Shown here piece by piece: positions 1,976-60,461 of a stretch of 64,000 nucleotides of DNA. A program made the position numbers and the translations under genes. The notes under the pieces are model-generated. The model was not told the DNA's origin. It ran no database searches and saw only the letters and a program-made list of their open reading frames with translations. The DNA comes from a virus (lineage: Duplodnaviria; Heunggongvirae; Uroviricota; Caudoviricetes): IMG/VR virus record IMGVR_UViG_3300032167_007646; one strand, given 5' to 3'. Within the stretch, counting starts at the first letter, position 1; each line of letters begins with the position of its first letter.

Positions 1976-2020
1976 CTCAAAATTTAATATTCCTGATTTA
2001 TTTTATTTAATTGTCCACAA

Positions 2021-2033: not shown

Positions 2034-2053
2034 AATACTTAAGATGTTTATAA

Positions 2054-2575: not shown

Positions 2576-2652
2576 TCCTTTTTCTTTAATATAAATTATA
2601 TTTTCATGACTTATTTTTTATTTTATACCTAATTATTTATGCCCAAATATAA

Positions 2653-2682
2653 AAATGGTGAAAGTATAATCTTTCACCATTT
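2653..2682 (-). terminator. Intrinsic terminator after galE
   Basis: 12-bp inverted repeat aaatggtgaaag/ctttcaccattt, 6-nt loop, T-run on minus strand. Confidence 0.8.
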
Positions 2683-2688
2683 AATTTC

Positions 2689-3690: not shown

Positions 3691-3711
3691 TTAGATTACC
3701 ACCTTTTCTTA

Positions 3712-18143: not shown

Positions 18144-18225
18144 AATATCACACCCTTTCTTTATTTTAAATTATAATAAACTGTTTATTTTTCTGTCCAT
18201 TTAAAATTACTTTTTGCCCAAATAA

Positions 18226-21261: not shown

Positions 21262-21325
21262 CCCAAACCAAAAATATTATACTACAGTATAATATTTCCA
21301 ACTGTAGCCTTTTATGTCCAAATAA

Positions 21326-22551: not shown

Positions 22552-22607
22552 TCCCCTATATTTATTCTAAACAAATATAAGTATTTATGCTCAAATTTCA
22601 TGTATTT

Positions 22608-40163: not shown

Positions 40164-40199
40164 ATTATATTAGTTATTTTTGTCCAAATATAACAAAAA

Positions 40200-40957: not shown

Positions 40958-42388
40958 TTAAATAATATTTTTCCAATCTACAGCTTCTTCTAACAATGTA
41001 TCAGCAACCATTAAACCCTGTGCTGCTGCCTGTGCTAAACTACGAGTAAATCCTGCACCATCACCAATAGCATAATAACCACTATGACAGTCTAATTCAA
41101 ACTTATCATTTGTTTTAGGTCTTGCACTATAATACTTACATTCAATACCATAAAGTAATGTATCGTAATTTGCTGTTCCTGGTGCTATCTCATCCAAAGC
41201 ATGTAATGTTTCAATAATATTGTCCAACTGTCTCTTTGGTAAACATAAACTTAAATCACCTGCTACTGCACCTTTTAATGATGGTCTTACAGTAGATTTC
41301 TGAAGTCTATGTTCATCAGTCCTTCTACCATTCTCCAAATCACCTAAACGCTGCACAAGCACAGAACCACCACTAATCATGTTGGCCATACTTGCAACAT
41401 GTCTTGCATATTCAATAGGCTTATTAAATGGTTGTGTAAACTTAATAGTAGATAACAAAGCAAAGTTTGTATTTTCTGTCTTTTTATCCTCTGCTTTATA
41501 AGCATGACCATTAACTGTCAATACACCATTTGTATTCTCTATTACAACCTCACCTCTACCATTAAAGCAGAACATTCTAGTACTATCACCATATTTCTTA
41601 CTAATATAATGAATTTTAGGTTCATAGATTTTCTTTTCAAAATCTTCCCAAATAACTGCAGGAAGTTCTACACGCACACCTATATCAACTTGATTATTAG
41701 TTAATTCAATTCCTTGTGCCTGACACCAAGAACTAAAGAAATTACTACCTACTCTACCCACTGCAAATATAACCTTATCTACTAAATCATACCCTTCTAA
41801 ACCATTCTTTGATTTATTAGTAAAATAAATGCACTTTTTATCATCATTTGTTGAATTATCACCAACACAAGTTACATTACAGTTGGTCTTAATCTCTACA
41901 TTATCTAATCTTTCTAAAAACTCAATCATATTTACCATTGTTTCAAAATTAGCATCTGTACCTAAATGCTTACATTGTGATTGAGCCATATGTAAATCAT
42001 GTTGTAAACATAACTTCTTCAATTCATTATTTGGCATATATCTATCATTTGTTGCACCAAAATCTACAAGAATAGAGTCTGCTTCTTCTATATAATTTAA
42101 TACTTCATCTCTATCTCTAATATCTTGCAACCAACCGCCAAATTCAGTAGTTATATTATATTTACCATCACTAAAGGCACCTGCACCTGCCATACCCTCC
42201 ATAATAGCACAATGGTTACACTTAATACACTTATCCACTTTCTTTGCTAAAATAGGACAAGAACGCTTTTTAATAGGATTACCCTTTTCATAAATAATTA
42301 CTTTAATTTTTGGATTGTTAGTAGCCATCTTATAAGCAGCCATTAAACTACTAATTCCACCACCAATAATTCCAACTTTCATCCTCAT
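40958..42388 (-). CDS. FAD-dependent oxidoreductase (COG2509-like)
   Basis: IIGGGISS, YEKG, GMAGAGAFSDGK, AIGDGAGFTRSLAQAA. Confidence 0.9.
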   Translation of the reverse strand: MRMKVGIIGGGISSLMAAYKMATNNPKIKVIIYEKGNPIKKRSCPILAKKVDKCIKCNHCAIMEGMAGAGAFSDGKYNITTEFGGWLQDIRDRDEVLNYIEEADSILVDFGATNDRYMPNNELKKLCLQHDLHMAQSQCKHLGTDANFETMVNMIEFLERLDNVEIKTNCNVTCVGDNSTNDDKKCIYFTNKSKNGLEGYDLVDKVIFAVGRVGSNFFSSWCQAQGIELTNNQVDIGVRVELPAVIWEDFEKKIYEPKIHYISKKYGDSTRMFCFNGRGEVVIENTNGVLTVNGHAYKAEDKKTENTNFALLSTIKFTQPFNKPIEYARHVASMANMISGGSVLVQRLGDLENGRRTDEHRLQKSTVRPSLKGAVAGDLSLCLPKRQLDNIIETLHALDEIAPGTANYDTLLYGIECKYYSARPKTNDKFELDCHSGYYAIGDGAGFTRSLAQAAAQGLMVADTLLEEAVDWKNII

Positions 42389-42392
42389 AACC

Positions 42393-43277
42393 TCACTTCA
42401 AAATTGTAACTTTTTCACCCATTTGTCTTTCAAACGCACTATAGCAAGACATTTTAGGTGGTCTATCAAATACTGCAAAAACTATTTTATCAAAACTATT
42501 TTCAAACACTTCTAAATTTATTAAATCTATCCAATTCTTTGCTATAACATTTGGGTCATTATCAAATACACCACAGCCAAATGCACCTAAAATAAGAGTT
42601 TTACAACCTCTTTCTTTAAACTCTAGCAATATCTTAAACATACGATTTTTCATATCCCAATCAGACTCTTTTACACCATTTCTCATATCTACTCTTTTGA
42701 GAATTGCACCTCTGTTAATTGCTGGACAAGTTATAACATCTGCTAAAACATATTCTACATTTTTATAATCTCCATTCTTAAAGAAAGGTACTTTTGGAGA
42801 AAAAATCATATTATCTGTATAATCAGGTAATGGATGTTTAAAATTCTCTGTATAATACTGATGTGCTTCATCTGTCATTAAAGAATCATATAATGCTGAA
42901 CACAAACACAAACTTTCTTCTTGTGCTTTTGCACCTGTAAGCCAACCACCACCTGGATTTCTTGCAGAAGCAAAATTCAAAACACCAAGATTATCTGTAC
43001 CCTTTAATCTTAATATAGCATCAACTGTCTTTTCTGTTGTTAATTCTATATCTATTTTACTAAAATTGTCTAACTTATTATATAAATTAAATGAGGGATA
43101 TTTTTTATTTTCACTTATAAAACTTGTATTATATTTCATTCTGTCAATAGCACAACTAATATCAATAATTTTTCCATTATATGAATATCTACCACTTTTA
43201 CAAATTTCTAATACAGATTTTGCATTTGGAACTATTGCGAATCTATCTCTATCCATCATAATTACACCACCAATCAA
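42393..43277 (-). CDS. TIGR02452/DUF2263 macrodomain protein, bacterial-type poly(ADP-ribose) glycohydrolase
   Basis: VLNFASARNPGGGWLTGAKAQEESLC (GGG-X7-QEE), IFSPKVPFF, LILGAFGCGVF.N. Confidence 0.9.
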   Translation of the reverse strand: MIGGVIMMDRDRFAIVPNAKSVLEICKSGRYSYNGKIIDISCAIDRMKYNTSFISENKKYPSFNLYNKLDNFSKIDIELTTEKTVDAILRLKGTDNLGVLNFASARNPGGGWLTGAKAQEESLCLCSALYDSLMTDEAHQYYTENFKHPLPDYTDNMIFSPKVPFFKNGDYKNVEYVLADVITCPAINRGAILKRVDMRNGVKESDWDMKNRMFKILLEFKERGCKTLILGAFGCGVFDNDPNVIAKNWIDLINLEVFENSFDKIVFAVFDRPPKMSCYSAFERQMGEKVTILK

Positions 43278-44899
43278 TTTACTTTTTCTAATTTACTATT
43301 CTCAAATTTATAGCAATTATTACAAATTTCTATTATCTTTGGTCTATGAGTTACTATTACAACTGTCTTATCTTTTAATACACTTTTTATTAACTCAACC
43401 ATTTTTTCTTCTGTTTCTACATCTACATTACTTGTAGGTTCATCCAACAAATAAATTTCTTTATCTTTTCTTAATAAACCCCTAATTAAATTTAATCTTT
43501 GTCTTTGACCTGTTGAAACAAAGACACCCCTCTCACCTAATAAAGTATCTAAACCATATTTTTGTCTATCAAACCAATCTTTTAACCCTACCTGTTCTAT
43601 ATAATCTATCAACAATTCATCTGAAATATTTTCACTACCTAAAACTAAATTATCCCTTAAACTCATATCTAATATTTCAGTATCTTGCGCTATAAATACA
43701 CACTCTAAACGCTTATCTGTCTTTTCACCATTTATATACACATTATCTGTCTCTATTTCACCTGATAATATATGAAGTAAAGTAGTTTTACCTTGACCTG
43801 ATTCACCATAAATACAAGTAATATCACCTCTATTTAATTCAAACAAAGGAATATTTATATGTACTAACTTATCTATATTTTCTTTTTCTATTTGATAAGT
43901 AAAATCTAAATTCTCTATTTTTGCACTTACAAAATCATTCTCATCTAATTGATTTCTCTTATTCATATCTGCAACTACTTCATCTAATTTTTTCTTTGCA
44001 CCCAAAAATTCCATATTTTTTTCAAAGGTTACAGAAAAATGTTTTGCAATATGAACCAATTGTAACCCTACAACAGATATTAAAGAGAAAAAGCCAACTG
44101 CATCAAATGAAGTACCTTGTAAAAAATTAAAGTATATTAACAAACAAATAGGTACAAACATAAATATTGACATTTTAAAGAAACAGAAAAAGAATTCTTT
44201 TGTCATACTATATTTTATAGTTCTTCTTCTACAGTCCTCAACTCTTTCTACCATTTTACTATCTATAAAATCAAAACCTTGCATTTTTTGAACTGTACCT
44301 ATATTTATAACTGTATCAGCAACTAACTTATTTCTTAAACCCTCTGCTTCTGTTAATTCACTTGCTCTTTTCTTTACAAATCTACTTCCTATTATTTGAA
44401 AAGTTACAGCCAACAATATTAAAAAAACAAATACTAAACCTAAACTCCAATGAAAATCCCATATTTTATAACTAAAGAATAAAATATAAAACAATGATAA
44501 AGGAAATTGCTGAACAGTCTGTGTATAAGCATTAACTTGACGAGCAATCATTTTTGTTAATAAACCACTTATATATCCTGTATTATATTTTTTAAGAACA
44601 GTAGGCTTTATATTATATATTTTCTTAAAGTATAATGAACTTACACCATTTTCAATACTTGTTAAAGACATATCATTATAACAATCTGCTATAAACTCTA
44701 ATACAGCCCAAATAAAGAAAAATAAAGCATAATGCAAAATTAATATAGGTAAATTTTCTATATCATTTACAACTTTTTCAGTTAATCCTGCTAATATTAA
44801 AACATAATTACAACTAAATATAGACCATAAAGCAGAAAAACAAACTTCTATTATAGGTCTCCATTTTGGTATTCCCTGAAATACTTTCACTATACTCAC
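43274..44899 (-). CDS. ABC exporter, fused permease + ATPase
   Basis: Multiple TMs; Walker A GESGQGKTT, signature VSTGQRQR, Walker B LLDEPT, H-loop VTHR. Confidence 0.92.
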   Translation of the reverse strand: MSIVKVFQGIPKWRPIIEVCFSALWSIFSCNYVLILAGLTEKVVNDIENLPILILHYALFFFIWAVLEFIADCYNDMSLTSIENGVSSLYFKKIYNIKPTVLKKYNTGYISGLLTKMIARQVNAYTQTVQQFPLSLFYILFFSYKIWDFHWSLGLVFVFLILLAVTFQIIGSRFVKKRASELTEAEGLRNKLVADTVINIGTVQKMQGFDFIDSKMVERVEDCRRRTIKYSMTKEFFFCFFKMSIFMFVPICLLIYFNFLQGTSFDAVGFFSLISVVGLQLVHIAKHFSVTFEKNMEFLGAKKKLDEVVADMNKRNQLDENDFVSAKIENLDFTYQIEKENIDKLVHINIPLFELNRGDITCIYGESGQGKTTLLHILSGEIETDNVYINGEKTDKRLECVFIAQDTEILDMSLRDNLVLGSENISDELLIDYIEQVGLKDWFDRQKYGLDTLLGERGVFVSTGQRQRLNLIRGLLRKDKEIYLLDEPTSNVDVETEEKMVELIKSVLKDKTVVIVTHRPKIIEICNNCYKFENSKLEKVN

Positions 44900-44927
44900 C
44901 TACTTTATCACACATCATACCTATTTA

Positions 44928-44956
44928 ATTATATCATATTTAAAAATGTTTGTCAA
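44928..44956 (-). promoter_or_regulatory. Consensus sigmaA promoter for the ABC-PARG-FAD operon
   Basis: TTGACA, 17 nt, TGnTATAAT. Confidence 0.85.
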
Positions 44957-44969
44957 TATATAACAAAAG

Positions 44970-45003
44970 AAAAGCTATTCAAAGTTTACTCTGAATAGCT
45001 TTT
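44970..45003 (-). terminator. Terminator after adhesin gene
   Basis: aaaagctattca/tgaatagctttt. Confidence 0.8.
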
Positions 45004-45015
45004 ATATATTAATTG

Positions 45016-48000
45016 TTACTCTTTTTTATTTTTTAATATTACGATATATGCCCCAAAAGAACCTAAAATAAGCATTAGGCCTATTAATCTATAATATTTA
45101 TAACCATTACCACCTGTATTTGGTATAGTATCAGATTCTATAGTATCATAATAATTTTCAAAAACTATATATCCATCAACTGTTGTTTCCAAATCAGGAC
45201 TAATAGTTATTACACCATCTAATCCTACAATTACTGTATATACAGTTTCATCCAATTTATAATTTGCTGGTGCTTTTATTTCTTTAAGATAATAAGTCTC
45301 ACCTAAAGTTAATGCAGGAAAATAATATAAACCATTATCATAGTCAATAGAATTTTCTATTAAATCAGTACATTCAAAATCTGAATATAATCCAAACTCT
45401 GCAGCATACAATAATTTATTATTATCCCCATCTACTTTTTGAATTGTAAATGAACCTTTTCTATTTGCTATAAATATATTTGCAACGTGGTCTCTACACT
45501 CAAAATAAGTAATAAATTTACCTGCTAATCTTTCTGCACTATCACCTTTATCTACAGATAAGAAAAAGTATCTATTTTCACCATTTGAAAAATAACCATC
45601 TGGCACACTTACTTCTCTTACTTTTAACAAAGTATTCAAAGGTAATAGTAAACCATCTTCATTATTTAACCAAATAATTTGTCCATTTTCATCAGTTGTT
45701 TTATTACTCAATAAAACCCAAGGGTCTAACATTTGATTATTTATATAATCTAAAACTTCTTCTTTAGAAGATAAAGAGTTTAATGACTCTAATTCTTCAA
45801 CAGTTAAAGTTCTCATTTTATACAATTCAAATTCAGCACCTTGCAATTTTAATTCCAAATCATTAGCGTCATATTTATGAATTATAATTTCTGTTACATT
45901 TGCGTCAACATTACCCTCTGGCTGCACTATTGTTATATCATTAGATATATCATCACCTAAATTCTTAAATCCTGAAATATGTGCATTATTACTTATTGTT
46001 ACAGTTTGACCTGATATACCTATTATTCTTACTGAATAACTTACCCTATAATAATTTTGTACTACATCATTATCAATAATACAAGTCATTGTATGAATAC
46101 CAGGGTCATATAATAATCTAAACAAATCTTCATCCAAAGCATACCAATTTTCTTTATCATCACTATACTCTACAACTACAGAATCAGTTAAAAGATTCAT
46201 ATCTTTTGTCATTTCATCTATAATATGAATTCTATTTATACCCTCTAATAATGGATTTATAGCTTCTACAATAACTTCATATTTAGCAAGATATTTATTT
46301 GTATTATCTGGTACTTGCACCATTTGCTTCTCTAATACAGTATGTTTATACTCATATACTGAATTACTTAAACTTTCTAATTCACCAGTATTTAAATAAG
46401 CATAAGATTCATTACCTAAATTATATCTATATATACCCTCATTATTTAATTTATTTACATCTAAAGCCACTTTATACCTAATTATTGGAGAATAATAACG
46501 ACGACTCCATTCTTCTGTATACCAACAATAATTTGGAGTTATACCATAATAAGGTATTTCTAGTTCAAAACCAAAATCTGACTGCTCTTTTATAGTTGCC
46601 ATAGGAACAGAAACATAAATAGGATTATCAGATTCATCTTGCGTAGAATCCAAAAAATAATTTGCATTCTCATTTATATTTAATAAATTACTCTCCCAAG
46701 CATATTCACTATCTTCAAAAGGATATAAATAATAACTTAAATTTTCTGTATCTTTATTTATATCATCTACCCAATATACTTCTAATGAATCTTCCACATA
46801 TTTTGCATAAGTAATATCTTCAAGAGTATCTATATAAGTAAATCCTTTACCCTCTGAATAATTCATTACATTATGACGTATTTCATAAGTTAAAATTAAC
46901 TCTTTACCATCTGGACTTAATTCCTCATTTATAACATTTTTTCTAAAATACTTATAATTATTTCTACTTTGAACAATTAAAGTACTTTCTCCTCTTAATG
47001 GACCTACCCAACCATTTGTATACCAATCACAAAAATTCTTATGAATCTTAAAATCTTCCTTTGCACCCTCCAAAGTCATAGGAAATTCTAAATGTATATA
47101 CAAATCTTCTGGATATGCTGATAAACCACCATAAGAAAAGTCATCTGCATTATTATCATCCGCTAATGAGAAATATATATTAGGTGAGGGACCACCCTCA
47201 TAATTCTTATTATTTGTTCTATCAAAGAAAAGCAATCTATTTAAGATAGTATCAGTAATATCCTCACCATTTTTTGTTTTTATAGTAAAATCTATACCTA
47301 AATTTCTCGCTTCTTCTTGACTATATAATATATAAGAACCATATAAATCTGGAGTATCCAACTTCAACTTATCTATATAAGTAATATCACCATTTTCCTT
47401 AAATGGTGTATAATCTTCAAAAAAGAAATCTGATAATGGCTTATCCGCAGGTACAAACCAATCAATATACCAAGTTGTATATAAATTACCATGCTCATCT
47501 GATTTAATACCTGTATTACCCTTCTTAATTGTTGAAGGTTTATCTATAACCACAGTTTCATCAATAAATCCATTTTTTTCTACTTTTGAATGATTTACAA
47601 CATATTTACCGTCATTTTGCTCTAATTTTTCACTATACGTTGTAGCATATTCTATCATTACATACAATATACTACATTCCAAATCAGGTAATAAATATTT
47701 AAAAGATTTACCATACCAATAAATTGCTGAACCATCTGTTATAGGAAAATTATCCTCTGTTAAAGAATCAAATTCTTCTTGTGAATTACACTCTATCCAA
47801 GGAATTCTTTTATATACATCATCATATCCTTCCTCTGTACTATAAGCAATTATACTACCACCCTGATATGGAAATACATAATCTATTTCCTCTGATAATG
47901 TATCTGTAATTAAATAACCACCATAATCTATATGTTCATCAGAATACATACTTAGGTTCCAGTCAACATAACCTCTTCCATTTTTATAATTATCCAAATA

Positions 48001-49629
48001 AACTATTTTATCTATTAAATCTATTTCTTCAAAATAAAAATAATCTGAATCACTAAAAGTTTCATCTTCCATAATAATATCAATACTATTATTTATTTGT
48101 ACACTATCTAAATCTTCTAAATGATAATACTCAAAAAAATCAGTCTCTATACATACATTATATTTTAACTCTGCAAATACATCAACAGGAATATTAAAAG
48201 GTTCTTCAAAAATAATCTCTGTTTTTATTTTTTCTTCATCTTTTATATATTCAATAGTAATTTCATTATTTGGTATTACATATTCAGTCAAAGTACCCTG
48301 TTTATCAGTTATTTCAAGTCTTATATCCTCTATAACTAATATATCCTCTAACTCTTTATCTTTATACTCCAAATAAGTTTCAAAAACTTCATAACCATAT
48401 GCAAACTCTAAAATATCTATAATAGATTGTACTTCTATATTTGTATAATTATTTATTCTTACATTATAAGAGATAATATTTTTACCTCTTTCCCAATTTG
48501 GATGACCAAAAGAACCCAAATCTGTTCCTTCTTTTAAAATTTCACCTTTTGATTTATCTAATTTTATAGTTATAATATTACCTTTACCTAAATCAATAGT
48601 AACACTATCACCATTTGTATTATTCCATAAACCAGAAAATTCTAAATTCCATTTTATTACAGACTGTTGAACACCTTCATCATTTAAAACAACATATATT
48701 TTACCATCTGAACTAATATGATAATCACCATAAATTATTCCATCTGAACCTACTAATTGTCCATCAATAGGATTTCCTACAGTGATACCCGCAAATTCCC
48801 AAACATAAAATTTATTTAGCTCCAATAAATTTGAACTTGTAGCAAACTGTAAAGTTAAATCTACATCAAAATCCAAATATACATTCATATCAGAGGGAGC
48901 TTCACCTGCTATTAGGTCATATCTATTATCTTCTGATATAATATAAGCAGCTATCAGAAATTCATCCATACTATGAAAATCTGCAATATCATAAATATTA
49001 CCACCTATTTCTATGGTGTCTGATAAGAAAGAAACATCATTAGACATAAGTTCAACAGAAGTTAATTCATCCAACATCTCTACTGATGTATCAAAAACAA
49101 CTTCTTTTTCTTCTATCTTAATCGCTTCCTCACTTTCATTACTGCTATTTTCTTTTGAAGATACTTCTTCATCTTTCAAAACTTCCTCAGTTTCAATAAT
49201 ATTCTCATTAGAAATTTCAATTTTATCTTCTTCAAATTCTTTTTGATTCTCTATCACTTCTTCAAAAGAATTTTCTAAATTCTCAACTGAATTTTCTAAA
49301 CTTACCTCAACTTCTCCATTATCTGAGGTCAAAGGTTTACTATCTTCCTCACTCATATTCAAAATTGTTACATCTCCATTAGATTCTGAATTTTCACTAT
49401 AATTATTATTTAGTTCTTCTTCTTCATCTAAAATCATTAAAGGATTATGTAAACCCATTTTCTTAAATTCTGCTAAACTCTCCTTATTATCTATAATAGT
49501 ATTTATGACTACTATATCAGAGTCATCTAAAGTATCTAACGCAAAAATAGAAACAGTATTAAAAATATTTAAAGAAAATAATAAGAAAGCAATCAAAAAT
49601 GATATTATTCTATTTATAAATTCTTTCAT
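45016..49629 (-). CDS. Large sortase-anchored adhesin / pilus tip protein
   Basis: Signal peptide, acidic linker, Ig-like repeats, SpaA/Cna-B domains (KLQGAEFELY, YYLKEIKAPANY), IPNTGG sorting signal + TM + basic tail. Confidence 0.88.
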   Translation of the reverse strand: MKEFINRIISFLIAFLLFSLNIFNTVSIFALDTLDDSDIVVINTIIDNKESLAEFKKMGLHNPLMILDEEEELNNNYSENSESNGDVTILNMSEEDSKPLTSDNGEVEVSLENSVENLENSFEEVIENQKEFEEDKIEISNENIIETEEVLKDEEVSSKENSSNESEEAIKIEEKEVVFDTSVEMLDELTSVELMSNDVSFLSDTIEIGGNIYDIADFHSMDEFLIAAYIISEDNRYDLIAGEAPSDMNVYLDFDVDLTLQFATSSNLLELNKFYVWEFAGITVGNPIDGQLVGSDGIIYGDYHISSDGKIYVVLNDEGVQQSVIKWNLEFSGLWNNTNGDSVTIDLGKGNIITIKLDKSKGEILKEGTDLGSFGHPNWERGKNIISYNVRINNYTNIEVQSIIDILEFAYGYEVFETYLEYKDKELEDILVIEDIRLEITDKQGTLTEYVIPNNEITIEYIKDEEKIKTEIIFEEPFNIPVDVFAELKYNVCIETDFFEYYHLEDLDSVQINNSIDIIMEDETFSDSDYFYFEEIDLIDKIVYLDNYKNGRGYVDWNLSMYSDEHIDYGGYLITDTLSEEIDYVFPYQGGSIIAYSTEEGYDDVYKRIPWIECNSQEEFDSLTEDNFPITDGSAIYWYGKSFKYLLPDLECSILYVMIEYATTYSEKLEQNDGKYVVNHSKVEKNGFIDETVVIDKPSTIKKGNTGIKSDEHGNLYTTWYIDWFVPADKPLSDFFFEDYTPFKENGDITYIDKLKLDTPDLYGSYILYSQEEARNLGIDFTIKTKNGEDITDTILNRLLFFDRTNNKNYEGGPSPNIYFSLADDNNADDFSYGGLSAYPEDLYIHLEFPMTLEGAKEDFKIHKNFCDWYTNGWVGPLRGESTLIVQSRNNYKYFRKNVINEELSPDGKELILTYEIRHNVMNYSEGKGFTYIDTLEDITYAKYVEDSLEVYWVDDINKDTENLSYYLYPFEDSEYAWESNLLNINENANYFLDSTQDESDNPIYVSVPMATIKEQSDFGFELEIPYYGITPNYCWYTEEWSRRYYSPIIRYKVALDVNKLNNEGIYRYNLGNESYAYLNTGELESLSNSVYEYKHTVLEKQMVQVPDNTNKYLAKYEVIVEAINPLLEGINRIHIIDEMTKDMNLLTDSVVVEYSDDKENWYALDEDLFRLLYDPGIHTMTCIIDNDVVQNYYRVSYSVRIIGISGQTVTISNNAHISGFKNLGDDISNDITIVQPEGNVDANVTEIIIHKYDANDLELKLQGAEFELYKMRTLTVEELESLNSLSSKEEVLDYINNQMLDPWVLLSNKTTDENGQIIWLNNEDGLLLPLNTLLKVREVSVPDGYFSNGENRYFFLSVDKGDSAERLAGKFITYFECRDHVANIFIANRKGSFTIQKVDGDNNKLLYAAEFGLYSDFECTDLIENSIDYDNGLYYFPALTLGETYYLKEIKAPANYKLDETVYTVIVGLDGVITISPDLETTVDGYIVFENYYDTIESDTIPNTGGNGYKYYRLIGLMLILGSFGAYIVILKNKKE

Positions 49630-49655
49630 ATTAACACCACTTTTCTATATATTAA

Positions 49656-50351
49656 TTACTCTACAACTCTTTCACCACGAACTATTAACCTTTGTGTTCC
49701 TACTCCAGGTGGAGTACAAGTAATCAAACTTACATATTCTTTACCCTCTATTATATTTAAACACTCTAAATCCTCAGGTTCCACTATATCTACATTATCA
49801 ACTTTATATTTATACTTTTCACCTAAAACTGTTATGAAAAAAGAATCACCATTCTTCATTTGGTCTAAATCTGTTAATAATCTAGCAGTAGCTAAAGCAG
49901 TATGCCCACATATAGCCACATGAGTATTTATTTTACCTGTTGGAAAAGAAGTATATTCCATATGTCCTACACCTACTGATAATTCTGGTCCTTCTGTCCC
50001 ATGATATATCGCTAATTCTACATTTATTTTAGGTATCTCTAATACACCCATTACCCCATCATTATGTAAATTTAAGATTGAATTGTAATCATCTAATTCA
50101 CCATTTATAAATTTTGCTTTTGCTCTACGAATATCATTTATCTTAAACAATTCTTCATTGTAAGCGTTTGCTCTATTTATTTCAACATCTTTCTCTGTTA
50201 TAGGCATTTTAGAAACATACTCACCATATTCTTTTATTACAAAACTTTGGTTTCTTCTATTTACAAAATCACTTATTTCAGGATAAAAAGTTACTATTAA
50301 ACCTACTAATACAAAAAGTATACTTATTACACAAATTAGATTTTTTTTCAT
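49656..50351 (-). CDS. srtC: Class C (pilus) sortase
   Basis: MGVLEIPKINV, GHTAL, LITCTP, RLIVRG catalytic H/C/R. Confidence 0.93.
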   Translation of the reverse strand: MKKNLICVISILFVLVGLIVTFYPEISDFVNRRNQSFVIKEYGEYVSKMPITEKDVEINRANAYNEELFKINDIRRAKAKFINGELDDYNSILNLHNDGVMGVLEIPKINVELAIYHGTEGPELSVGVGHMEYTSFPTGKINTHVAICGHTALATARLLTDLDQMKNGDSFFITVLGEKYKYKVDNVDIVEPEDLECLNIIEGKEYVSLITCTPPGVGTQRLIVRGERVVE

Positions 50352-50383
50352 ACTCTTAACCCCTTAACCTAAAAATAAGAAAT

Positions 50384-50412
50384 GAACCCCTCACCCTCTG
50401 AATGAGGGGTTC
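50384..50412 (-). terminator. Hairpin between pilin and sortase genes
   Basis: gaacccctca/tgaggggttc. Confidence 0.7.
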
Positions 50413-50421
50413 TATATAAAA

Positions 50422-52032
50422 TTAGTTATTTACTTTCTTATCTTTTGAACGATAAAGGAAAAAGAGAACACCACAAGCAATTACAAGCATACTTAAGCCA
50501 TATACCTTAAATGGTAATGTACCACTACCACCTGTTTGAGGTAATGAACCACCAACACTATTATTAATAGTTACAACTACATTACCTGGCATTTCAGAAT
50601 CTTCATCTTCAACTGAGAATGATGAAGTTATTGTAGCAAGGTTCTGTCTATGAGTTGTTTCAAACTTATCATCTTTTGCATCACCATCTACTGTATATAC
50701 AGCATTAATATTTGCATTAATATTACCTAATAATGGATTATAACCTGCAGGAGCCGCTGTTTCTTTAATATAATAAGTAGCTGCGTCTAATCCTAAAATT
50801 GTCATAATACCTGTATTATCTGTTGTAATTTCAGTAACAGCATCCACAGTTCCACTTGTTACTACTTCATATACATTATTTGTAGAAGTTTCTTTTAAAT
50901 ATACAGGATTATTATTAGCTGCATCAGAGAATAACTTAAATGAAGCACCTTCCAAATAATCACTTGTATTATTAGCATCTACTTTATGAATACTCATACT
51001 ATAAGAATAAACTATTGTATTATCCCAAGCAGTAGTATTTCTTTCACTTGTATTATAAGGGTCACTGCTATATGTTAACATTGCTCTTGATAAATTACCA
51101 CCTTGACCTGTCTCACCATTTCTTAATACAAATTTTGAAGAATCTACATTAGCAGTATAAACTATATCCACACCTGTAATACCATTTGCAACAGCATTTT
51201 TCATACCACTAAATATAATTGATACAGTATTAGCCGCTGAATCTTCTTCTACAGTATATGTAATACTAGCAGGAGTAGCTACAGTAGCACTTGCTGAATT
51301 CTTAAAAACCACACTTTCTATATCATCAAATACAATACCTTTTTCTAACTCTATATCAATAGTATAATCATATTGTGTATAACCCCTCATATCAGTTATT
51401 GAACCTGTTAATTTATATTCAATAGGCTCATCAAAAGAAATATCAGTAATATCTATATAACTATCTGAATCATCATCATATACTTTCATAAGTAAAGTAG
51501 GAGCACTTGACTTTACTGCTACTGTCTCATTTTTTGTAGCTACTTCTAGAATAGCCAATGAACGAGCCTCATGAACACTTGTTTCTTCTACAATTAAATA
51601 ATAACCTTTACTTTGTACCTGAATACTTTTAGTACCTGAACCTGCAGGGTCAATAGGATTACCTATAGCATAGTTCATAATTTCTGCTGCAAAGGCATCT
51701 ATATCAGCAGCAGTTGTTAAACTTGAAACATACTCAACAGCACTATTTTTACCTTTACCTGCTAAAAACTCTGGAGTAAAATATCCAGCAAAATCAGGGT
51801 TTAATGTATAACCTATTTTTTCATTCTCACCCTCACCTGTTGATGTTGCAGAGAAAATCATATACGCATCATATGTATCTCCATCTGTTCCTGTAAGAGT
51901 AATTGTATAAACTTCAGCAGCAGATACATTTACACAAACAAGAGAAAACAACATCATAATAACTAATAATGAACTAAAAATTCTTTTCATCTTTTTGTCA
52001 GCCTTACACCACATAAGGCTTCCTCCTCTCAA
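50422..52032 (-). CDS. Major (backbone) pilin, SpaH/EbpB-like
   Basis: Signal peptide, VAVKSSAP pilin-like Lys, E-box YYIKETAAPAGYN, LPQTGG + TM + basic tail. Confidence 0.9.
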   Translation of the reverse strand: MRGGSLMWCKADKKMKRIFSSLLVIMMLFSLVCVNVSAAEVYTITLTGTDGDTYDAYMIFSATSTGEGENEKIGYTLNPDFAGYFTPEFLAGKGKNSAVEYVSSLTTAADIDAFAAEIMNYAIGNPIDPAGSGTKSIQVQSKGYYLIVEETSVHEARSLAILEVATKNETVAVKSSAPTLLMKVYDDDSDSYIDITDISFDEPIEYKLTGSITDMRGYTQYDYTIDIELEKGIVFDDIESVVFKNSASATVATPASITYTVEEDSAANTVSIIFSGMKNAVANGITGVDIVYTANVDSSKFVLRNGETGQGGNLSRAMLTYSSDPYNTSERNTTAWDNTIVYSYSMSIHKVDANNTSDYLEGASFKLFSDAANNNPVYLKETSTNNVYEVVTSGTVDAVTEITTDNTGIMTILGLDAATYYIKETAAPAGYNPLLGNINANINAVYTVDGDAKDDKFETTHRQNLATITSSFSVEDEDSEMPGNVVVTINNSVGGSLPQTGGSGTLPFKVYGLSMLVIACGVLFFLYRSKDKKVNN

Positions 52033-52094: not shown

Positions 52095-52300
52095 GGTTTT
52101 TATATAAGTAAATTTAGGCATAGGACATCTACAAAAGGAATTAATTTCCTTTTATAACAATATTTAATTCACTTCTTCAAATAACCAATAAACTTATAAC
52201 AGAGTTACAAAAATTATCTACTGTTATACTAATTATTTTATCAGTTATCATTTATGTCCAAATTATAACATACTGAGCATATATTTTCTTTATTATGTTA

Positions 52301-53514: not shown

Positions 53515-54192
53515 TTATAACTTCATAAATCCCCATTCTAATAAATTTCTTAAAAAATAAACATATATAAATCTACCAAATATTGCTAATATTAACGAAT
53601 AAATTAAAATCTTAAACGATTGTTTTGGGTTATTCCATAACACTAATAAAGCCAAAACCCAATTCACTGCTTCCATACCATTATATCTAAAATTAAAATA
53701 ATCAAAACCAAATGAAAAAGCCATTACAAAAAATACTGCTAAAATTACAGAAGATAAAAAAGTTGCCATTTTACCTGTACCCCTTGCATACCAACATAGG
53801 ATTGAAGGAATAGGAGAAGCAAAAGCCAATATCAACCAATAAATAATAACTCTCTCAAACACAAAACCCTCTATAAAATATGTAGCAGTATAATAACTCA
53901 ATAACATACCTATAAAAAACACAAAAACATTTATGACTGCTCTTAAAGGAGTTTTACTGACTACACTTATTGTTAAAGCACATAATAACCATATTGACAT
54001 TCTACTAAAAAATGCACCTAAATCAAAAACCATAAATATCTCATGAATGTACTCTAACTCTATAAAATCTAAAATTCTTGAAATCAAACCCAATAGAATA
54101 CCTATTGTAAATGATATATAAGTATTAAATACTTTATTTCCAAAAGGTCTGTCTATAATTGGTTTTCTTATTTTTTCTAATAACCTTACCAT
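53515..54192 (-). CDS. Polytopic membrane protein, DUF6518-like
   Basis: About 7 TM; SKTPLRAVINVFVFFIGMLLSYY. Confidence 0.7.
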   Translation of the reverse strand: MVRLLEKIRKPIIDRPFGNKVFNTYISFTIGILLGLISRILDFIELEYIHEIFMVFDLGAFFSRMSIWLLCALTISVVSKTPLRAVINVFVFFIGMLLSYYTATYFIEGFVFERVIIYWLILAFASPIPSILCWYARGTGKMATFLSSVILAVFFVMAFSFGFDYFNFRYNGMEAVNWVLALLVLWNNPKQSFKILIYSLILAIFGRFIYVYFLRNLLEWGFMKL

Positions 54193-54217
54193 TTACACCA
54201 CCCCTCTAACTTATAAT

Positions 54218-54242
54218 AGGCGTAGAGATAAACTCTACGCCT
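54218..54242 (-). terminator. Terminator ending the PARP operon
   Basis: aggcgtagag/ctctacgcct. Confidence 0.75.
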
Positions 54243-54251
54243 ATCTAATTT

Positions 54252-57200
54252 TTAACTATTTAAACCTAATTTCTTTACTGCACTATCAAAATATTTCTTT
54301 TGTTTATCTGAACATCTACCTGTCTTTGATATTGTTGTTGAAACACCCTTTTCTATATCACTTAATGTCTTAAAATCAGAATGAGCCACTACTTTACAAG
54401 CAAGTGCCTTTATATCATCACTCTCTTGAACATCTTTCTTATCATCTGCAACCTCATCTGATTTTATAATACCTAATTTAACACAAGCCCTATTTATATA
54501 ATAAAGTTGTTTTTCAGAACAAGTTTTCTTTTGACTTACAGTTTCAGATATACCTTTTTCCAAACTATCTAATGTATTGAAATCAGGATGCTCTTTTAAT
54601 TTTTCAGCCTTTTGAACTCCTGTTAAACCTGATTTATCTCTACCACCCTCGTCCTCTACTAATACATCTTCAATATTTAATTGATTTGGTTTTGGTAAAT
54701 TATTATGTTCTGTTGCTAAATCAATAGCAGTTGCACCATATTTCATTAAGATTTTCCAAATATTTTTAACATCATGTTTTAACAAGTAGTATCTACCTAA
54801 AATATCCGATAACTCAACAATTTCTAATTTAGTTAATTGCATTTTATCCATTTCTCTTAAGTCTTTTAATACCCTATATGTTAATTCAAAATGATTATAA
54901 ATAAGATTATGATTATAACATTCAGCCCTTAAAGCATTTCTATATTTCTTTAATTTTCTACCATCTAATGAACCTACTACATTACAATCTGCCACTATTT
55001 CTTCTACACCATTATTCCAATCATTTCTATCAACACAACTCATTAAAACTTCTAAAAATCTCTCTAATTCTTTTGCTGAATCCTGATATTTTACTTCATT
55101 AAACGCTACAGCCCTTCTTATACCATTATCTGAATATCCACTATAACGACCTGTTCTTCTCTCTGCTGCAACATTCACTTCATGATATTTAATATGTTCA
55201 TCTAAATATCTCTTTACTCTTTCTAATACAGGACCTTTAATAAGTTCATCTTGCTTTCTTTCTTCCTCTTTTGCCTTATATTCCTCTATTAAAGGAATTA
55301 AAGAGGTTTCAATTACCATATAAAAAGCACTAACATTATTATACCACTTTATAGAATTAAAGAATTCACCTGCATCCATATCACTATGATGATACTTAAA
55401 ATCACCACTACCATTTTCATTATATTTTTCATTCAATGCAGTTCTATACTTTTCAACACCTATAAATGAACTGTTTTTCTTTAATTCTTTAAGAACATCT
55501 ATTCCATTCTGATACAATAACCTATAATGTTTTTCAAAAGTTATTTTATCATTCTTCAATCCAATAAATAATTCTTTTAAAGCATTATATAAGTTTTCAA
55601 AATCATCACTGTAGTCAGATATACACTTATTATAAATTTCTTCTGGTATAGCCTGTTTAAGTTCATCTATCACACTATCTGTATGTAATGGACTATCCAT
55701 ATTGCAGAAATTAACATATGCTAATGACGCTGCTGAACCCCTTTCAAATAATCTCTTTTCCTTAAAGATTATAGAAAGAACACCTAATGTAAATGTATCT
55801 AAATCTGGAGTATCTAATAATCTCTTTAAGTCATTCTTCAAGGCACCCAAATTTAAATAATCATACAATTTTTCTTCTTCTGCTTCTTGTTTAGCATTAC
55901 TATAAGTTTCCATTATATCTTTCAACATATCAGCATAAGGAGCCATTATCTTAAATGCTACTAAATCATATAAATTCTTCTGTTTCATATAAGGTTGCAT
56001 TTTCTTATTAGCACGCTTAGCAATCAATAAATCACAATAATCCTCAAAATACTCCCTATTTGTTTTCTCTTGATTTACAACTAAATCATCATAATCTACA
56101 AATAAGTCTGCACGATTATTTGCTTCTTTATAATCCTTTAAGTTAGATACTAACTCGCCAAGAATATTATATAATTCTCCACAATCTTTCTTAAATTTCT
56201 TAAAGTTACCTTTATATTTTTTCAAAATTGCCTTATAAAATTCTTCTCTTGGTGGGTATTCTTGTGTAGCTAAACGCATAACCTTATCCTTATCTAAATT
56301 CATTAAATTATAATGCTGACAAGTCATAATAGTATGTTCTATACCCTTTGAAGTTGTAATTAAAGAACATAAAAATTGTGCTATTTCTTCTTCTGTTTCT
56401 AAATAAGCAACACATTTTAATAACTTCTGAATATTAACTAAAGATTCCTTTATAATATTTCTATATCCACCTTGTATTACCCTAAAATATCTTGAAACAT
56501 TAAAAGGTATAATATCTGCATTAAATTTAGCATCTAAATTATAACGACCTTTTTCTATCTTTGAAGTACCATCTATATCTATACCTATCCTCTTATCTAC
56601 ACCATCTAACATATATTTAGAATAACCCTCATCCATATTCTCTGGTCTTTTAATAACAGGTTTGCTACTCATAAACATTGTCATACAATCATTTATATAA
56701 TTTATAACCCTATTATACCCATACGCATCTTTTGACATTATCTTATCTAATTCTTCCTCAGATATTAAACCTTTATTTACAAGTGTTTTAATATCTTTTA
56801 TAGCCATTAATTTTGTTACCATTGTTTCCCAAGTTAATACAGCCTTATAAAAAGAAACTTGACCATTTATATTCCAATATTTCAATTCAGGGTCTCTCTC
56901 ACTTACTTTCATCTTTTCAGATAAATAACTTGTTATAAATTCTGTAAATGCTGTTTTTAATAAACTACTTTTTGCAAGATTATAAGATATTAACAAATCC
57001 TGTGTATATTTCAAATAGTCAGGATGATGTTGTCTTGTAGCCTTACTTATAATTCTATTTAATCTATCACACAAAGATTTTGGAATAGGTAATCCAACTT
57101 CAACAAACTTCAAAGCATATTTTACATAACCTGCTGTATTCATTTGACTTTTATCTTCTTCTTTAACAGGTATTTTAACAACTTTTCTATCCTCTATTTT

Positions 57201-58034
57201 ATTATATAAATTAGGGTCTAAATCTCCATTTAAACAAGAAATTATATTCTCCTTTATCCACTCCAAAGGTTTTTCTGTTTTAGTTCCATCACCAAATTTT
57301 ATAGGATATAAACCTGTTTCTTTATTTTCAACAAGAGTATCACCATTCCATTTTACTAAAAATGTAGTTAAATCACGCAAACCTTCTACTCCATCTTTTA
57401 ATAAAACTTCACCTGTATGACCTGCCATATATTTATAATACTCTTTCTGCCATTTCTTTTCCATAATAATAGCAATTATCTTTATATCTCTTAATGTTTT
57501 AGACTGAATAGTTCTCATAGAAGCTAAACTTGTCTTATCTATATTGAAAAAGTCTGCTGCACAGTTACAACCAAATCTTAAAACCTCATGAGTTTTCTTA
57601 TTCGCAGCAAAATGAGCATATCTTACAGGGCGAGGACATAAATCACACTTATGTCCATTATTTTTACCCGCATCTGTCATTCCATCATATACCCAATCTT
57701 CCAAATTAAACTTCTTTATACCCATTTCCTCTGTCAATTTCTTTATTTTCTCTTTTATTTTTTGATTTCTCTGTTCTATCTGTAATTCAACAGTACCATT
57801 CAAATCCTTATATAATTCCACAGAAAAACCCCTAAAATATGAGTCTAATAATTGTCTTTGAACAGGATTAAATAAAGCATAAACTTCTTCACTCTCATCA
57901 CCCTTATAACGATTTTCAATAGCATCCATTACAACTCTATCAAATTCCTCTTTTGTTTCCTGCTCTCTCTGAATCTCTTCATCACTTTTAGTTATCTGCA
58001 TATCTTTTGCATCATCTATATACAAACGAGACAT
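54252..58034 (-). CDS. 1260-aa hypothetical protein with N-terminal Zn-binding motif and two C-terminal ~50-aa repeats
   Basis: WVYDG...CDLC...RYAH...FGCNC; repeats HPDFNTLDSLEKGI...CSEKQ..Y...KLG and HSDFKTLSDIEKGV...CSDKQ..Y...KLG. Confidence 0.85.
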   Translation of the reverse strand: MSRLYIDDAKDMQITKSDEEIQREQETKEEFDRVVMDAIENRYKGDESEEVYALFNPVQRQLLDSYFRGFSVELYKDLNGTVELQIEQRNQKIKEKIKKLTEEMGIKKFNLEDWVYDGMTDAGKNNGHKCDLCPRPVRYAHFAANKKTHEVLRFGCNCAADFFNIDKTSLASMRTIQSKTLRDIKIIAIIMEKKWQKEYYKYMAGHTGEVLLKDGVEGLRDLTTFLVKWNGDTLVENKETGLYPIKFGDGTKTEKPLEWIKENIISCLNGDLDPNLYNKIEDRKVVKIPVKEEDKSQMNTAGYVKYALKFVEVGLPIPKSLCDRLNRIISKATRQHHPDYLKYTQDLLISYNLAKSSLLKTAFTEFITSYLSEKMKVSERDPELKYWNINGQVSFYKAVLTWETMVTKLMAIKDIKTLVNKGLISEEELDKIMSKDAYGYNRVINYINDCMTMFMSSKPVIKRPENMDEGYSKYMLDGVDKRIGIDIDGTSKIEKGRYNLDAKFNADIIPFNVSRYFRVIQGGYRNIIKESLVNIQKLLKCVAYLETEEEIAQFLCSLITTSKGIEHTIMTCQHYNLMNLDKDKVMRLATQEYPPREEFYKAILKKYKGNFKKFKKDCGELYNILGELVSNLKDYKEANNRADLFVDYDDLVVNQEKTNREYFEDYCDLLIAKRANKKMQPYMKQKNLYDLVAFKIMAPYADMLKDIMETYSNAKQEAEEEKLYDYLNLGALKNDLKRLLDTPDLDTFTLGVLSIIFKEKRLFERGSAASLAYVNFCNMDSPLHTDSVIDELKQAIPEEIYNKCISDYSDDFENLYNALKELFIGLKNDKITFEKHYRLLYQNGIDVLKELKKNSSFIGVEKYRTALNEKYNENGSGDFKYHHSDMDAGEFFNSIKWYNNVSAFYMVIETSLIPLIEEYKAKEEERKQDELIKGPVLERVKRYLDEHIKYHEVNVAAERRTGRYSGYSDNGIRRAVAFNEVKYQDSAKELERFLEVLMSCVDRNDWNNGVEEIVADCNVVGSLDGRKLKKYRNALRAECYNHNLIYNHFELTYRVLKDLREMDKMQLTKLEIVELSDILGRYYLLKHDVKNIWKILMKYGATAIDLATEHNNLPKPNQLNIEDVLVEDEGGRDKSGLTGVQKAEKLKEHPDFNTLDSLEKGISETVSQKKTCSEKQLYYINRACVKLGIIKSDEVADDKKDVQESDDIKALACKVVAHSDFKTLSDIEKGVSTTISKTGRCSDKQKKYFDSAVKKLGLNS

Positions 58035-58052
58035 TCAAACCACTCCTTTCAA

Positions 58053-59600
58053 CTAATTTCCTATCTCTACTTCTACAATATATCTTATTTTATATCTGTT
58101 CTGATTATATACTATAAATTCATTATGAAATAAAGAATAATAATTTGTCTTAAACATTTGATAAAACTTTTCTTTACTTATCTTCAAATCTTTTGTTCCA
58201 CCAATACCCTTTATATCACAACCATACTTAAAAGCATCTTGACCTACACCCATAACACTATTACAACCCGTAGGTGCATGAGCAAAATTACGAGCATGCA
58301 TTTCCATGTGCATTTTACCTAATGCTACATCACATAATAACAAGAAATATCTATTACCTTTATTACGAGTACCACCAAAACGAGAAGTAGAATACTGTAA
58401 TGCTTTTGAATATTCTCCAAAATATACTCCTGGACCAAACATAGCGCCTGTCAACTGAATATTAGGTCCTAAATTTGCAGGAAGTTTAATACTTGTAGAT
58501 AAAATACCCAATAAATTTGCACCTCTAGTTCCATGAAATAATGAAACTACATTACCACAACTTGCATCAAATTGAGGTGCATTTAACTGATTTACCTCAT
58601 AAACATTTACTAATCTTGTTCTTAAATGGTGATTATCTAATTGTTCTTTCTTCATTTTCTCTTTAATTGAATTAAATATACCCTCATCTGTTACAAGAGT
58701 TATTTCACTATTTAACCCTTTATATTTTGTTGTAGTATCAACATCATAATTAGTATTTAATACAGCATTTGATAAACCTACTTCCAATATTTCCAATAAA
58801 TCATATTGTTCCATCAATTTTTCACCTGTATCTAATAACCAATCTGTTGAACCTCTACTTATAACACGAGGTATTGTCATATTATACATATTAGATAATT
58901 CTGCTATATCATTACGAAGTTTCTCAATATTCCTTTTAGCAGTCGCTAATTTATTTTGAACTTCACTTATTTGCTTTAATATTTCTCTACCCCTTAATAT
59001 CATTTTATGATTTATCATACCAAGAGGGTTTTCTGAACTTTGGAATTGTTCAGGATTTATAGACCTTTTAATAGTCTGATTAGCCTCAGCATAAATGGTT
59101 TCCACCAATTTTGATACTTTTGGAGAAATAGCTTTAATTTCTGTTTTCTTTTCTGGTTTTGTTGCCTTTAATTCCTCTGCTAACTCCTTATTTTTATCAA
59201 TTATACCCTTTGCAACATTACTATCTAAAACATTTTTCTCTGTTACAAAACCTTTTGCTGCTGCACTACAGTTAGGATAAATAGAAATGACTTCAACTTC
59301 TTGATAACCCTCTTTTAACCTTTTCTTACATTCATCCAAATAAATATTTTTTACCATTATCTCACTTGCAAATCTTCTAATTCTTGCCTGTATATCATCT
59401 GAACCTAAACGACCACTAGTTATTGCTAAATAACACATTTTTCCATCTTTTAGAATTTCTATATTACAAAATTTATTACTTACTTTATTAGTCTTTATAT
59501 CACCTTTTGAATAAATATAAGATGCTATTTTCATACATTCTACATTTACATTTGTATAAACTTTATCAATATCACCAATTATTTTTATATTATCAGCCAT
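58053..59600 (-). CDS. Poly(ADP-ribose) polymerase (WGR-like + regulatory + catalytic domains)
   Basis: SNKFC.IE...SGRLG (WGR-like); MYNMTIPR (regulatory); FHGTRG, GAMFGPGVYF, ALQYS, LLLCDVALGK, HNEFIVY (H-Y-E triad). Confidence 0.93.
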   Translation of the reverse strand: MADNIKIIGDIDKVYTNVNVECMKIASYIYSKGDIKTNKVSNKFCNIEILKDGKMCYLAITSGRLGSDDIQARIRRFASEIMVKNIYLDECKKRLKEGYQEVEVISIYPNCSAAAKGFVTEKNVLDSNVAKGIIDKNKELAEELKATKPEKKTEIKAISPKVSKLVETIYAEANQTIKRSINPEQFQSSENPLGMINHKMILRGREILKQISEVQNKLATAKRNIEKLRNDIAELSNMYNMTIPRVISRGSTDWLLDTGEKLMEQYDLLEILEVGLSNAVLNTNYDVDTTTKYKGLNSEITLVTDEGIFNSIKEKMKKEQLDNHHLRTRLVNVYEVNQLNAPQFDASCGNVVSLFHGTRGANLLGILSTSIKLPANLGPNIQLTGAMFGPGVYFGEYSKALQYSTSRFGGTRNKGNRYFLLLCDVALGKMHMEMHARNFAHAPTGCNSVMGVGQDAFKYGCDIKGIGGTKDLKISKEKFYQMFKTNYYSLFHNEFIVYNQNRYKIRYIVEVEIGN

Positions 59601-59621
59601 TTGTATTCACCCTCTTTCACA

Positions 59622-60014
59622 TTATACACCATATTCTCTTTTAATACGATTTTCTAAACTTTCTAAATAATTTGTTACACAACCTAATTGAAAATTTCTT
59701 GAAGTCCTATCCCTTCTACGAGCCGCATTCTCCCATAATCTCTTATGACCTAATACAGAACTTATATCTGAATGGAATAAACCATTTGTTGAAGTATAAT
59801 CTATAATTTCTTTATCAGTTCTACCATTAAATTCTATACCATTACTACTTAATATTGCTTTACACAAATTTAATAAAGATAAATCCATATTTTTAACTAT
59901 TTCATCACAATCTGAATTACCCCACCAATAAGGAGAATATCTATAACTTTCTACAAATATTCTCTGTTGTTTTGCATGTTCTATATAACTTTTCGCTGAC
60001 ATCATAATTATCAC
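59622..60014 (-). CDS. Hypothetical protein, paralog family D
   Basis: YIEHAKQQRIFVES...LLNLCK...LWENAARR. Confidence 0.78.
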   Translation of the reverse strand: MIIMMSAKSYIEHAKQQRIFVESYRYSPYWWGNSDCDEIVKNMDLSLLNLCKAILSSNGIEFNGRTDKEIIDYTSTNGLFHSDISSVLGHKRLWENAARRRDRTSRNFQLGCVTNYLESLENRIKREYGV

Positions 60015-60080
60015 CTTTTTTCTATTTATTTACTTTAAAATAAAATAAACTGTCATTTATTTATGCTCAAAAATTTTCTT

Positions 60081-60461
60081 TTATATTAATCTACATTCTT
60101 TTACTACTAATTTTTCAAAATTCTCCAACGCTTCAACAACATTCTCTAAATAATAATATCTACTTGTTTTACGTCTTGTTGCACCCTCCCATAAGTCTAT
60201 TTCACTTTTAACTCTATGCACAAATAGAGAATAATTCTGTCTTGAACCTACAAAAGTTATAATAGATTCTTCTGGCTCTTCTTGAAAAGGAATATTATTA
60301 TAAACCAACAAAATTTTACACAAATTTAAAAGGGCTAATTTCATATTCCTTTTAATATCATTAAATTCAGAACTACCTATATAATAAAAATCATCTCTAT
60401 GACTTTTTACAAATTCTTTTTGTTTTTGATAATGTTCAAAATATGTATTTAATGATAACAT
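60081..60461 (-). CDS. Hypothetical protein, paralog family D
   Basis: YFEHYQKQKEFVKS...LLNLCK...LWEGATRR. Confidence 0.78.
   Translation of the reverse strand: MLSLNTYFEHYQKQKEFVKSHRDDFYYIGSSEFNDIKRNMKLALLNLCKILLVYNNIPFQEEPEESIITFVGSRQNYSLFVHRVKSEIDLWEGATRRKTSRYYYLENVVEALENFEKLVVKECRLI

Follow-up and report, generated by a model that had tools for sequence, protein, structure and literature searches.

In the present study, we analysed a 64,000-nt stretch of viral DNA (IMG/VR record IMGVR_UViG_3300032167_007646, Caudoviricetes; hereafter the window). On its minus strand, a gene for a poly(ADP-ribose) polymerase (PARP) of 515 aa (58053-59600) is followed by a gene for a protein of 1,260 aa (54252-58034), here called the giant. 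It was observed that the PARP gene lay directly 5' of a giant gene in 14 of 14 distinct loci, the window included. Judging from this linkage, the giant is most likely the dedicated partner of the PARP.

Conserved pairing of the PARP and giant genes

The 14 loci comprised the window, L001, L002(/3), L004(/5), L006, L007, L008, L012, L013, L014, and four loci from a separate, independent metagenome scan (L031, L032, L033 and L037); the long-contig PARP-clade clusters P0196, P0205, P0194 and P0207 stand outside this count. Of the 11 loci in which the spacer between the two genes was measured, one had 101 nt and the others 4-28 nt. This arrangement was retained over a wide range of divergence, with pairwise identities falling to about 21% for the giants and 39% for the PARPs, and the identities of the two proteins rose and fell together (r = 0.90 over 66 pairs). 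The other neighbours differed between loci, the downstream gene included. In addition, several PARP and giant clusters had longest contigs of the same length (395,031; 136,383; 42,462; 31,370; 26,815; 24,992; 12,039), as expected for a one-to-one relation.

The linked PARPs formed a discrete clade of about 40 clusters (P0171-P0210) with at least 44% identity to the PARP of the window and lengths of 509-527 aa, apart from a few fragments and one member of 583 aa. The nearest PARPs outside the clade were at most 34% identical, were 451-473 aa long, and had a WGR domain recognised by Pfam. IMG/VR contained 42 further phage PARP loci, with at most 31% identity to the clade, and none of them encoded within 6 kb a protein with either of the conserved terminal modules of the giant (the N-terminal module or the C-terminal repeat); the clade-level partnership is therefore specific both ways. 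The pair was found only on large phage-like contigs, and relatives of the N-terminal half of the giant were found neither in IMG/VR nor in 185,579 species genomes. The elements were provisionally regarded as phage-like from the gene content of related contigs of 130-395 kb.

A genomic pattern of this kind normally marks subunits or an obligate enzyme-cofactor pair. In one lineage of large phage-like elements of low G+C content, we tentatively regard the PARP and the giant as obligate partners in a two-gene module. A sequence-only reading of this DNA, made without database searches, had proposed an undescribed PARP partner and had pointed to linkage among giant homologues as a check. In the synteny analysis the pair was kept at every one of the 14 loci, and the proposal stands because of this tight and specific linkage.

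Domain content of the two proteins

The PARP matched the Pfam models PARP (4.5e-27) and PARP_reg (1.2e-11, residues 159-273), and its best PDB matches were PARP2, PARP4 and PARP1. Residues H356, Y393 and E494 aligned to the H-Y-E triad of PARP2 and were invariant in seven orthologues. The Pfam WGR model gave no match on the N-terminal domain; hhalign comparison with WGR-bearing relatives revealed a divergent WGR domain at residues ~37-105 (97% probability, E 9.4e-11). Its signature reads 'TSGRLG', and the tryptophan is replaced by serine or threonine in most members of the clade. With an ADP-ribosyltransferase (ART) triad, a helical regulatory domain (HD) and a WGR domain, the PARP is classed by sequence as a WGR-HD-ART enzyme of the clade-1, DNA-dependent type. 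All parts needed for poly-ADP-ribosylation appear to be retained, and the DNA-sensing WGR domain appears remodelled. Between the WGR and helical domains, residues 105-125 (S-I-Y-P-N-C-S-x-A-A-K-x-F-V) were strongly conserved in the whole giant-linked clade; this segment is a candidate docking site for the giant.

WGR-PARPs from Herpetosiphon aurantiacus (HaPARP) and Clostridioides difficile CD160 (CdPARP) are described as making poly(ADP-ribose) (PAR) in vitro and as having PARG partners (PMC8120803, PMC5966428). Viral PART-family ARTs have been catalogued (PMC9503650), and a role in sensing DNA damage has been proposed for the PARPs of gut jumbo phages (PMC11662467). The enzyme of the window resembles these proteins in its WGR domain, helical regulatory domain and H-Y-E ART, and in having a PARG from the same organism. 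In contrast, its clade is at most 34% identical to the nearest other PARPs, exceeds them in length by about 60 aa, reads 'SGR' instead of 'WGR', carries a conserved, putatively clade-specific linker (SIYPNCS...), and is always followed by the giant. The searched parts of these four papers describe no conserved large PARP partner, and no account of the function or targets of a phage PARP was found in the literature. The enzyme type is thus known, and the obligate, unannotated partner is new.

Clustered at 90% identity, the homologues of the giant fell into 27 groups, and more divergent homologues were found besides; all came from metagenomes and, except for a few fragments, were 1,058-1,353 aa long. 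The giant had no match in Pfam, PHROGs, NCBIfam or PADLOC, and 18 members of its family had no Pfam match (E up to 0.1, or 0.05 in the family checks). Profiles of the full length, the N-terminal module and the C-terminal repeat found nothing below E 0.39 among PDB sequences. Tblastn of the giant against GenBank phages and PLSDB plasmids returned nothing, as did tblastn with a shorter relative (below) and megablast of the DNA. The two AlphaFold2 half-models of the giant had predicted local distance difference test (pLDDT) values of 73 and 82.5 and were nearly all helix, in agreement with the long helical middle noted in the sequence-only reading. With these models, Foldseek against the PDB gave best E values of 0.5 and 0.08, a wide VIA-align search gave generic helical hairpins and bundles only (Z at most 6.2), and AFDB clusters gave a best E of 0.1; in the ESM Atlas, the template modelling (TM) score by shape was at most 0.20 and feature scores were at most 0.80. 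These results suggested, provisionally, that the giant has no known fold, given that the models cover halves and not single domains. From its sequence, it has no detectable catalytic domain.

Profile searches and alignments delimited an N-terminal module at residues 20-215 (57390-57977, minus strand). Within it, invariant columns marked a Cys/His core at residues 114-163 (57546-57695, minus strand) with the pattern WxYDGxxDxG...C130xxC133...RYxH141...FGC156xC158xxDFF. Residues W114, Y116, D117, G118, C130, C133, H141, C156 and C158 were invariant in 18 homologues, and D121, G123 and the DFF after C158 were invariant or nearly so. The core is a putative zinc site of C-(C/H)-H-C form. A zinc-binding motif had already been noted from the sequence; the motif is real and invariant in these 18 homologues, but its CxxC...GCxC form does not extend to the wider family, where only C130 and C158 are universal. 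Two known classes of finger were considered and set aside. A PBZ-type (PAR-binding) finger was dropped on ligand spacing, and a zf-PARP finger has the spacing Cx2Cx28-30Hx2C, against C130x2C133x7H141x14C156xC158 here, with no Pfam match in the 18 members.

Conservation was unevenly distributed along the giant. The mean column identity was 65% for residues 1-480 and 41% for the C-terminal half, and the giant-specific region 215-480 falls inside the best-conserved part of the protein. At the other end, a hidden Markov model (HMM) identified two three-helix repeats, at residues 1135-1189 (54468-54632, minus strand; E 4e-26) and 1204-1258 (54261-54425, minus strand; E 5e-23), which bore out the two C-terminal repeats of about 50 aa noted earlier. 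Two or three copies were found in each full-length homologue scored. In VIA-align, repeat 2 weakly resembled the helix-turn-helix (HTH) domains of WhiA (Z 5.8, rmsd 2.3, 60 aa) and NarL (Z 4.3, rmsd 1.7, 42 aa) and those of SigC, SigF and SigD4 (Z 4.1-4.4); the overall range against sigma-4/LuxR/WhiA HTH domains was Z 4.1-5.8 and rmsd 1.7-2.5 over 42-62 aligned residues. A loose likeness of these tails to AIPR proteins, suggested in the sequence-only reading, found no support. None of the 18 members had a Pfam match to AIPR at E up to 0.05, and the only AFDB row named 'AIPR protein' stood at rank 14 (E 0.34, probability 0.16, TM 0.08).

Searching 1.84 billion representatives with the profile of the N-terminal half returned 233 proteins, 18 of which were giants or fragments of giants. 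The remaining proteins (about 200 clusters), here called short forms, were mostly 550-900 aa long and matched only profile positions ~20-215. Short forms such as P0039, P0048 and P0093 are true homologues of the giant, with the same N-terminal module (E 1e-25 to 1e-9); at the C-terminal end, many have its 55-aa three-helix repeat, present once, twice or three times. They differ in having about 600 fewer central residues, Gly-His in place of C133, a single Cys in place of CxC, and no adjoining PARP. Their core reads DWxYDGxxDTGxxGGGxCxLGHxLRYEHYA...FGxxCxSDFF; the replacement of C133 by Gly-His with H141 retained is what gives the likely metal site its C-(C/H)-H-C form. The giant thus belongs to an unannotated family, within which it is enlarged by about 600 central residues. 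The neighbours of short forms include genes for a 5'-3' exonuclease, a Toprim protein, DNA methylases and an actin-like protein. In one subgroup (L015-L022), the short-form gene lies 3' of genes for an ALP_N/MreB-like actin-like protein and a 797-aa coiled-coil protein (L016, 5393-9965) and 5' of the exonuclease gene. Some N-module proteins of phage-like contigs (L035 8523-17308, L043 748-9181, L048 8484-15465, L029 997-9974) carry an extra N-terminal domain of about 150 aa that also occurs in the product of the adjoining gene or genes, as measured in L029, L035 and L043. This domain has the look of an N-terminal 'address' shared by cargo proteins that are otherwise unrelated. In L035, the sole locus of these scanned with Pfam, the neighbours encode an LRR_5 protein, a DUF2201 metallopeptidase/VWA protein and then an AAA_5 ATPase.

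A possible scaffold role and competing explanations

We propose, with some reserve, that the giant serves the PARP as a scaffold without catalytic activity of its own: it would bind the enzyme and either bring it to its target, probably DNA, or activate it there. According to this proposal, the PARP and giant genes would be transcribed together in a unit that stops at a hairpin, and the scaffold would be metal-binding and all-helical. Positioning or activation of the PARP on the target, most likely DNA, would fall to the Cys/His module and the two HTH-like repeats of the giant, which would in effect take over, in trans, the part played by the long N-terminal region of eukaryotic PARP1. The giant might itself be a major acceptor of the polymer, which PARG, often encoded nearby, would remove. 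Gene order, conservation, co-inheritance, the domains of the PARP and the lack of known domains in the giant were observed directly; physical, metal and DNA binding by the giant and the direction of regulation are inferred.

PARP1 uses Cys/His zinc modules. The N-terminal region of eukaryotic PARP1 (zinc fingers, BRCT) and HPF1 offer an analogy only, as non-catalytic parts that direct the site and target of a WGR-HD-ART enzyme. The giant is a separate 1,260-aa polypeptide for which no sequence or fold similarity to PARP1 or HPF1 was detected, and its Cys/His spacing (Cx2Cx7Hx14CxC) differs from that of the PARP-type finger. If the giant targets the PARP in trans, the pair would illustrate the way in which a minimal WGR-HD-ART core can be guided when the eukaryotic N-terminal domains are missing. 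A bolder version is in our estimate doubtful: in a lineage of giant phages, the PAR machine would consist of two pieces, a stripped-down PARP and a separate 1,260-aa protein with a new fold, on which the PARP would rely to recognise its target or to become active. Were it true, no earlier case of a cofactor dedicated to a PARP would exist outside eukaryotes, and the C-(C/H)-H-C site and HTH-like repeat would define a widespread, wholly uncharacterised family of large-phage proteins. The inseparable partner provides an experimental handle on what phage PARPs bind, what they target and how they are activated, and the searches brought to light about 230 sequence clusters of wholly unannotated large-phage proteins.

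The sequence-only reading had suggested complex prediction as a check on the pair. One such prediction was run with the whole PARP and residues 1-480 of the giant, using paired 7-row alignments. The score was 0.42, against 0.00 for the best control, with at least 79% contact agreement between runs and a partner pLDDT of at least 65, and the verdict was weak support. In calibration, the pass mark was met by 58 of 80 solved complexes and by 2 of 110 mismatched pairs; only 7 of those 80 solved complexes, but both mismatched pairs, met it with a score of at most 0.60. Given the strong genomic prior, we take the predicted complex as a hint, a mild plus for binding between the PARP and the giant.

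Several results weigh against the scaffold proposal. The giant has no homology to any characterised protein that would back an activity, and its Cys/His core was modelled at a pLDDT below 50. The HTH likeness of the last repeat is too weak to be told apart from the chance matches that small helical domains give, and the giant is not basic overall (isoelectric point 6.3; repeats about 8.6), unlike a typical DNA binder. The complex score of 0.42 falls in a band where passes are mostly wrong unless the prior is high. Finally, a PARP gene was found within 10 kb in one of about 28 short-form loci (L010, 5 kb away); short forms are thus mostly without PARP, and therefore the basic function of the family does not need it.

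The strict adjacency and co-inheritance would fit equally well if the giant were mainly a substrate of the PARP, that is, a large poly(ADP-ribose) acceptor, or a brake that restrains an NAD-consuming enzyme until a signal arrives, in a logic like that of toxin and immunity protein. An enzyme-first, partner-second order with a short gap is common in enzyme/regulator pairs, and the PARG and FAD-dependent protein genes found nearby (described below) suggest controlled turnover. However, 1,260 residues with strongly conserved terminal modules shared by PARP-less relatives exceed the needs of a simple inhibitor or acceptor, and no acidic or Ser-rich acceptor tract stands out in the giant. We consider this explanation rather unlikely.

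A comparably low probability was assigned to mere co-expression, in which the giant comes from a large-phage family with its own job (replication or recombination, or as an early or injected protein) and one subfamily became fixed beside a PARP. The short forms are what recommend this explanation: about 200 clusters have the N-terminal module, many of them also the C-terminal repeats, without a PARP; their neighbours include the exonuclease, Toprim, methylase and actin-like genes; and in some phages the N-module protein shares its additional N-terminal domain with unrelated neighbours. However, a chance co-location would not outlast divergence to about 21% identity at 14 of 14 loci while the other neighbours change. 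The linked PARPs form a clade of their own with a remodelled WGR domain and a conserved, putatively clade-specific linker, and the giant gained about 600 residues over the short forms; both points likewise speak against this explanation. A conflict system for competitor exclusion or counter-defence, in which the giant detects either an invader or a signal of host defence while the PARP as effector ADP-ribosylates proteins or DNA ends or drains NAD, is quite improbable: neighbourhoods rich in NAD/ADP-ribose and RNA-repair functions (Thg1, Tpt1-type PTS_2-RNA, YAcAr, an Apyc1-like protein, PARG, RtcB) and the common design of a large sensor with an effector would suit it, but no component matches PADLOC, no NTPase, repeat-sensor or other domain recognisable as a sensor is present in the giant, and the module was found only on large phage-like contigs and not in the 185,579 species genomes.

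Transcription unit and surrounding genes

The window has a G+C content of 27% and a GC skew of about -0.4, and practically all genes lie on the minus strand. The PARP gene is preceded by a gene for a 130-aa protein of 'family D' (59622-60014, minus strand), for which the ATG at 60005, after AAGGTG, is the likelier start. The three genes had been described as separated by gaps of about 20 bp, and the measured spacers were 21 nt between the 130-aa and PARP genes and 18 nt between the PARP and giant genes; a purine-rich ribosome-binding site precedes each gene. A motif noted at 60061 was located as the promoter-like TTTGAGCATAAA at 60060-60071 (minus strand), about 45 nt 5' of the 130-aa gene. 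Seven exact matches to TTTGRRCAWAWA, this one included, occur in the window (2636-2647, 18211-18222, 21311-21322, 22584-22595, 40177-40188, 52251-52262 and 60060-60071), all on the minus strand and intergenic. By chance 0.78 matches were expected, and none of 100 shuffles reached seven. These results indicated that the motif is a genuine recurring signal; functionally, it probably represents a class of promoters of the viral element. Additional spacers hold looser variants (TGGACATAA, TTGGACATA).

At the other end of the unit, the hairpin noted earlier at 54218-54242 is real, with a perfect stem of 12-13 bp that spans 54216-54244 (minus strand; -21.4 kcal/mol, z = -5.0). The coding strand has no good U-tract there, and the next gene (53515-54192), for a predicted membrane protein, has no motif of its own; therefore, some read-through past the hairpin is possible. 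A strong but unrelated hairpin (at or below -15.6 kcal/mol) also comes after the stop codon of the giant gene in 9 of 12 relatives, which, together with the hairpin of the window, supports a transcription unit that terminates at this point.

The 130-aa gene is a paralogue of the gene at 60081-60461 (36% identity) and had no match in Pfam, PHROGs, NCBIfam or PADLOC. Neither gene is conserved, as relatives have unrelated small genes or none 5' of the PARP gene. In four loci (L001 6052-6393, L002 5942-6355, L004 6023-6358, L008 4032-4394), a different small gene occupies this position; its products are 112-138 aa long, resemble one another when aligned, have a common 'DYxKIQxLYE' motif, and are unrelated to family D. 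L006 has a third type of small gene in three copies, and L007 has a proton pyrophosphatase gene. In L014, genes for a protein with the adenylation domain of NAD-dependent DNA ligase and for a ParB_N-HNH protein (1520-4389) lie directly 5' of the PARP-giant pair, which fits a DNA-end context. Family D, absent upstream of the PARP in relatives, was thus dropped as a third component: the 130-aa gene is presumably co-transcribed in the window, yet it is not a conserved member of the module. The system of two or three components suggested in the sequence-only reading is accordingly reduced to the PARP-giant pair.

Two other genes were observed as frequent satellites of the pair. The first encodes a microbial-type PARG (42393-43277, minus strand; Pfam PARG_cat_microb 2.3e-37), which lies about 11 kb 3' of the giant gene in the window and 1.6 kb 3' of it in L006. 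The second encodes an FAD-dependent protein (PF21688, assigned by Pfam; 40958-42388, minus strand) that is extremely conserved (phmmer E 1e-158 to 0), with orthologues at most 2.5 kb 3' of the giant gene in L002, L004, L006, L008, L031 and L033; it may be a third player in an ADP-ribose module. Between the giant gene and these satellites, the window carries genes for an ABC transporter, two SpaA/pilin-type proteins of 1,537 aa and 536 aa, and a sortase (43274-52032). This surface/export block looks like an insertion because PARG lies only 1.6 kb past the giant in L006. A search of PADLOC-DB 2.0 with eight proteins of the region gave no match. Elsewhere in the window, cell-type genes at 3712-5964, 6846-7934, 19138-21261 and 33772-35100 encode a pyruvate formate-lyase-like glycyl radical enzyme, an RtcB RNA ligase, a CdaA-YbbR fusion (di-adenylate cyclase) and a TrkH cation transporter.

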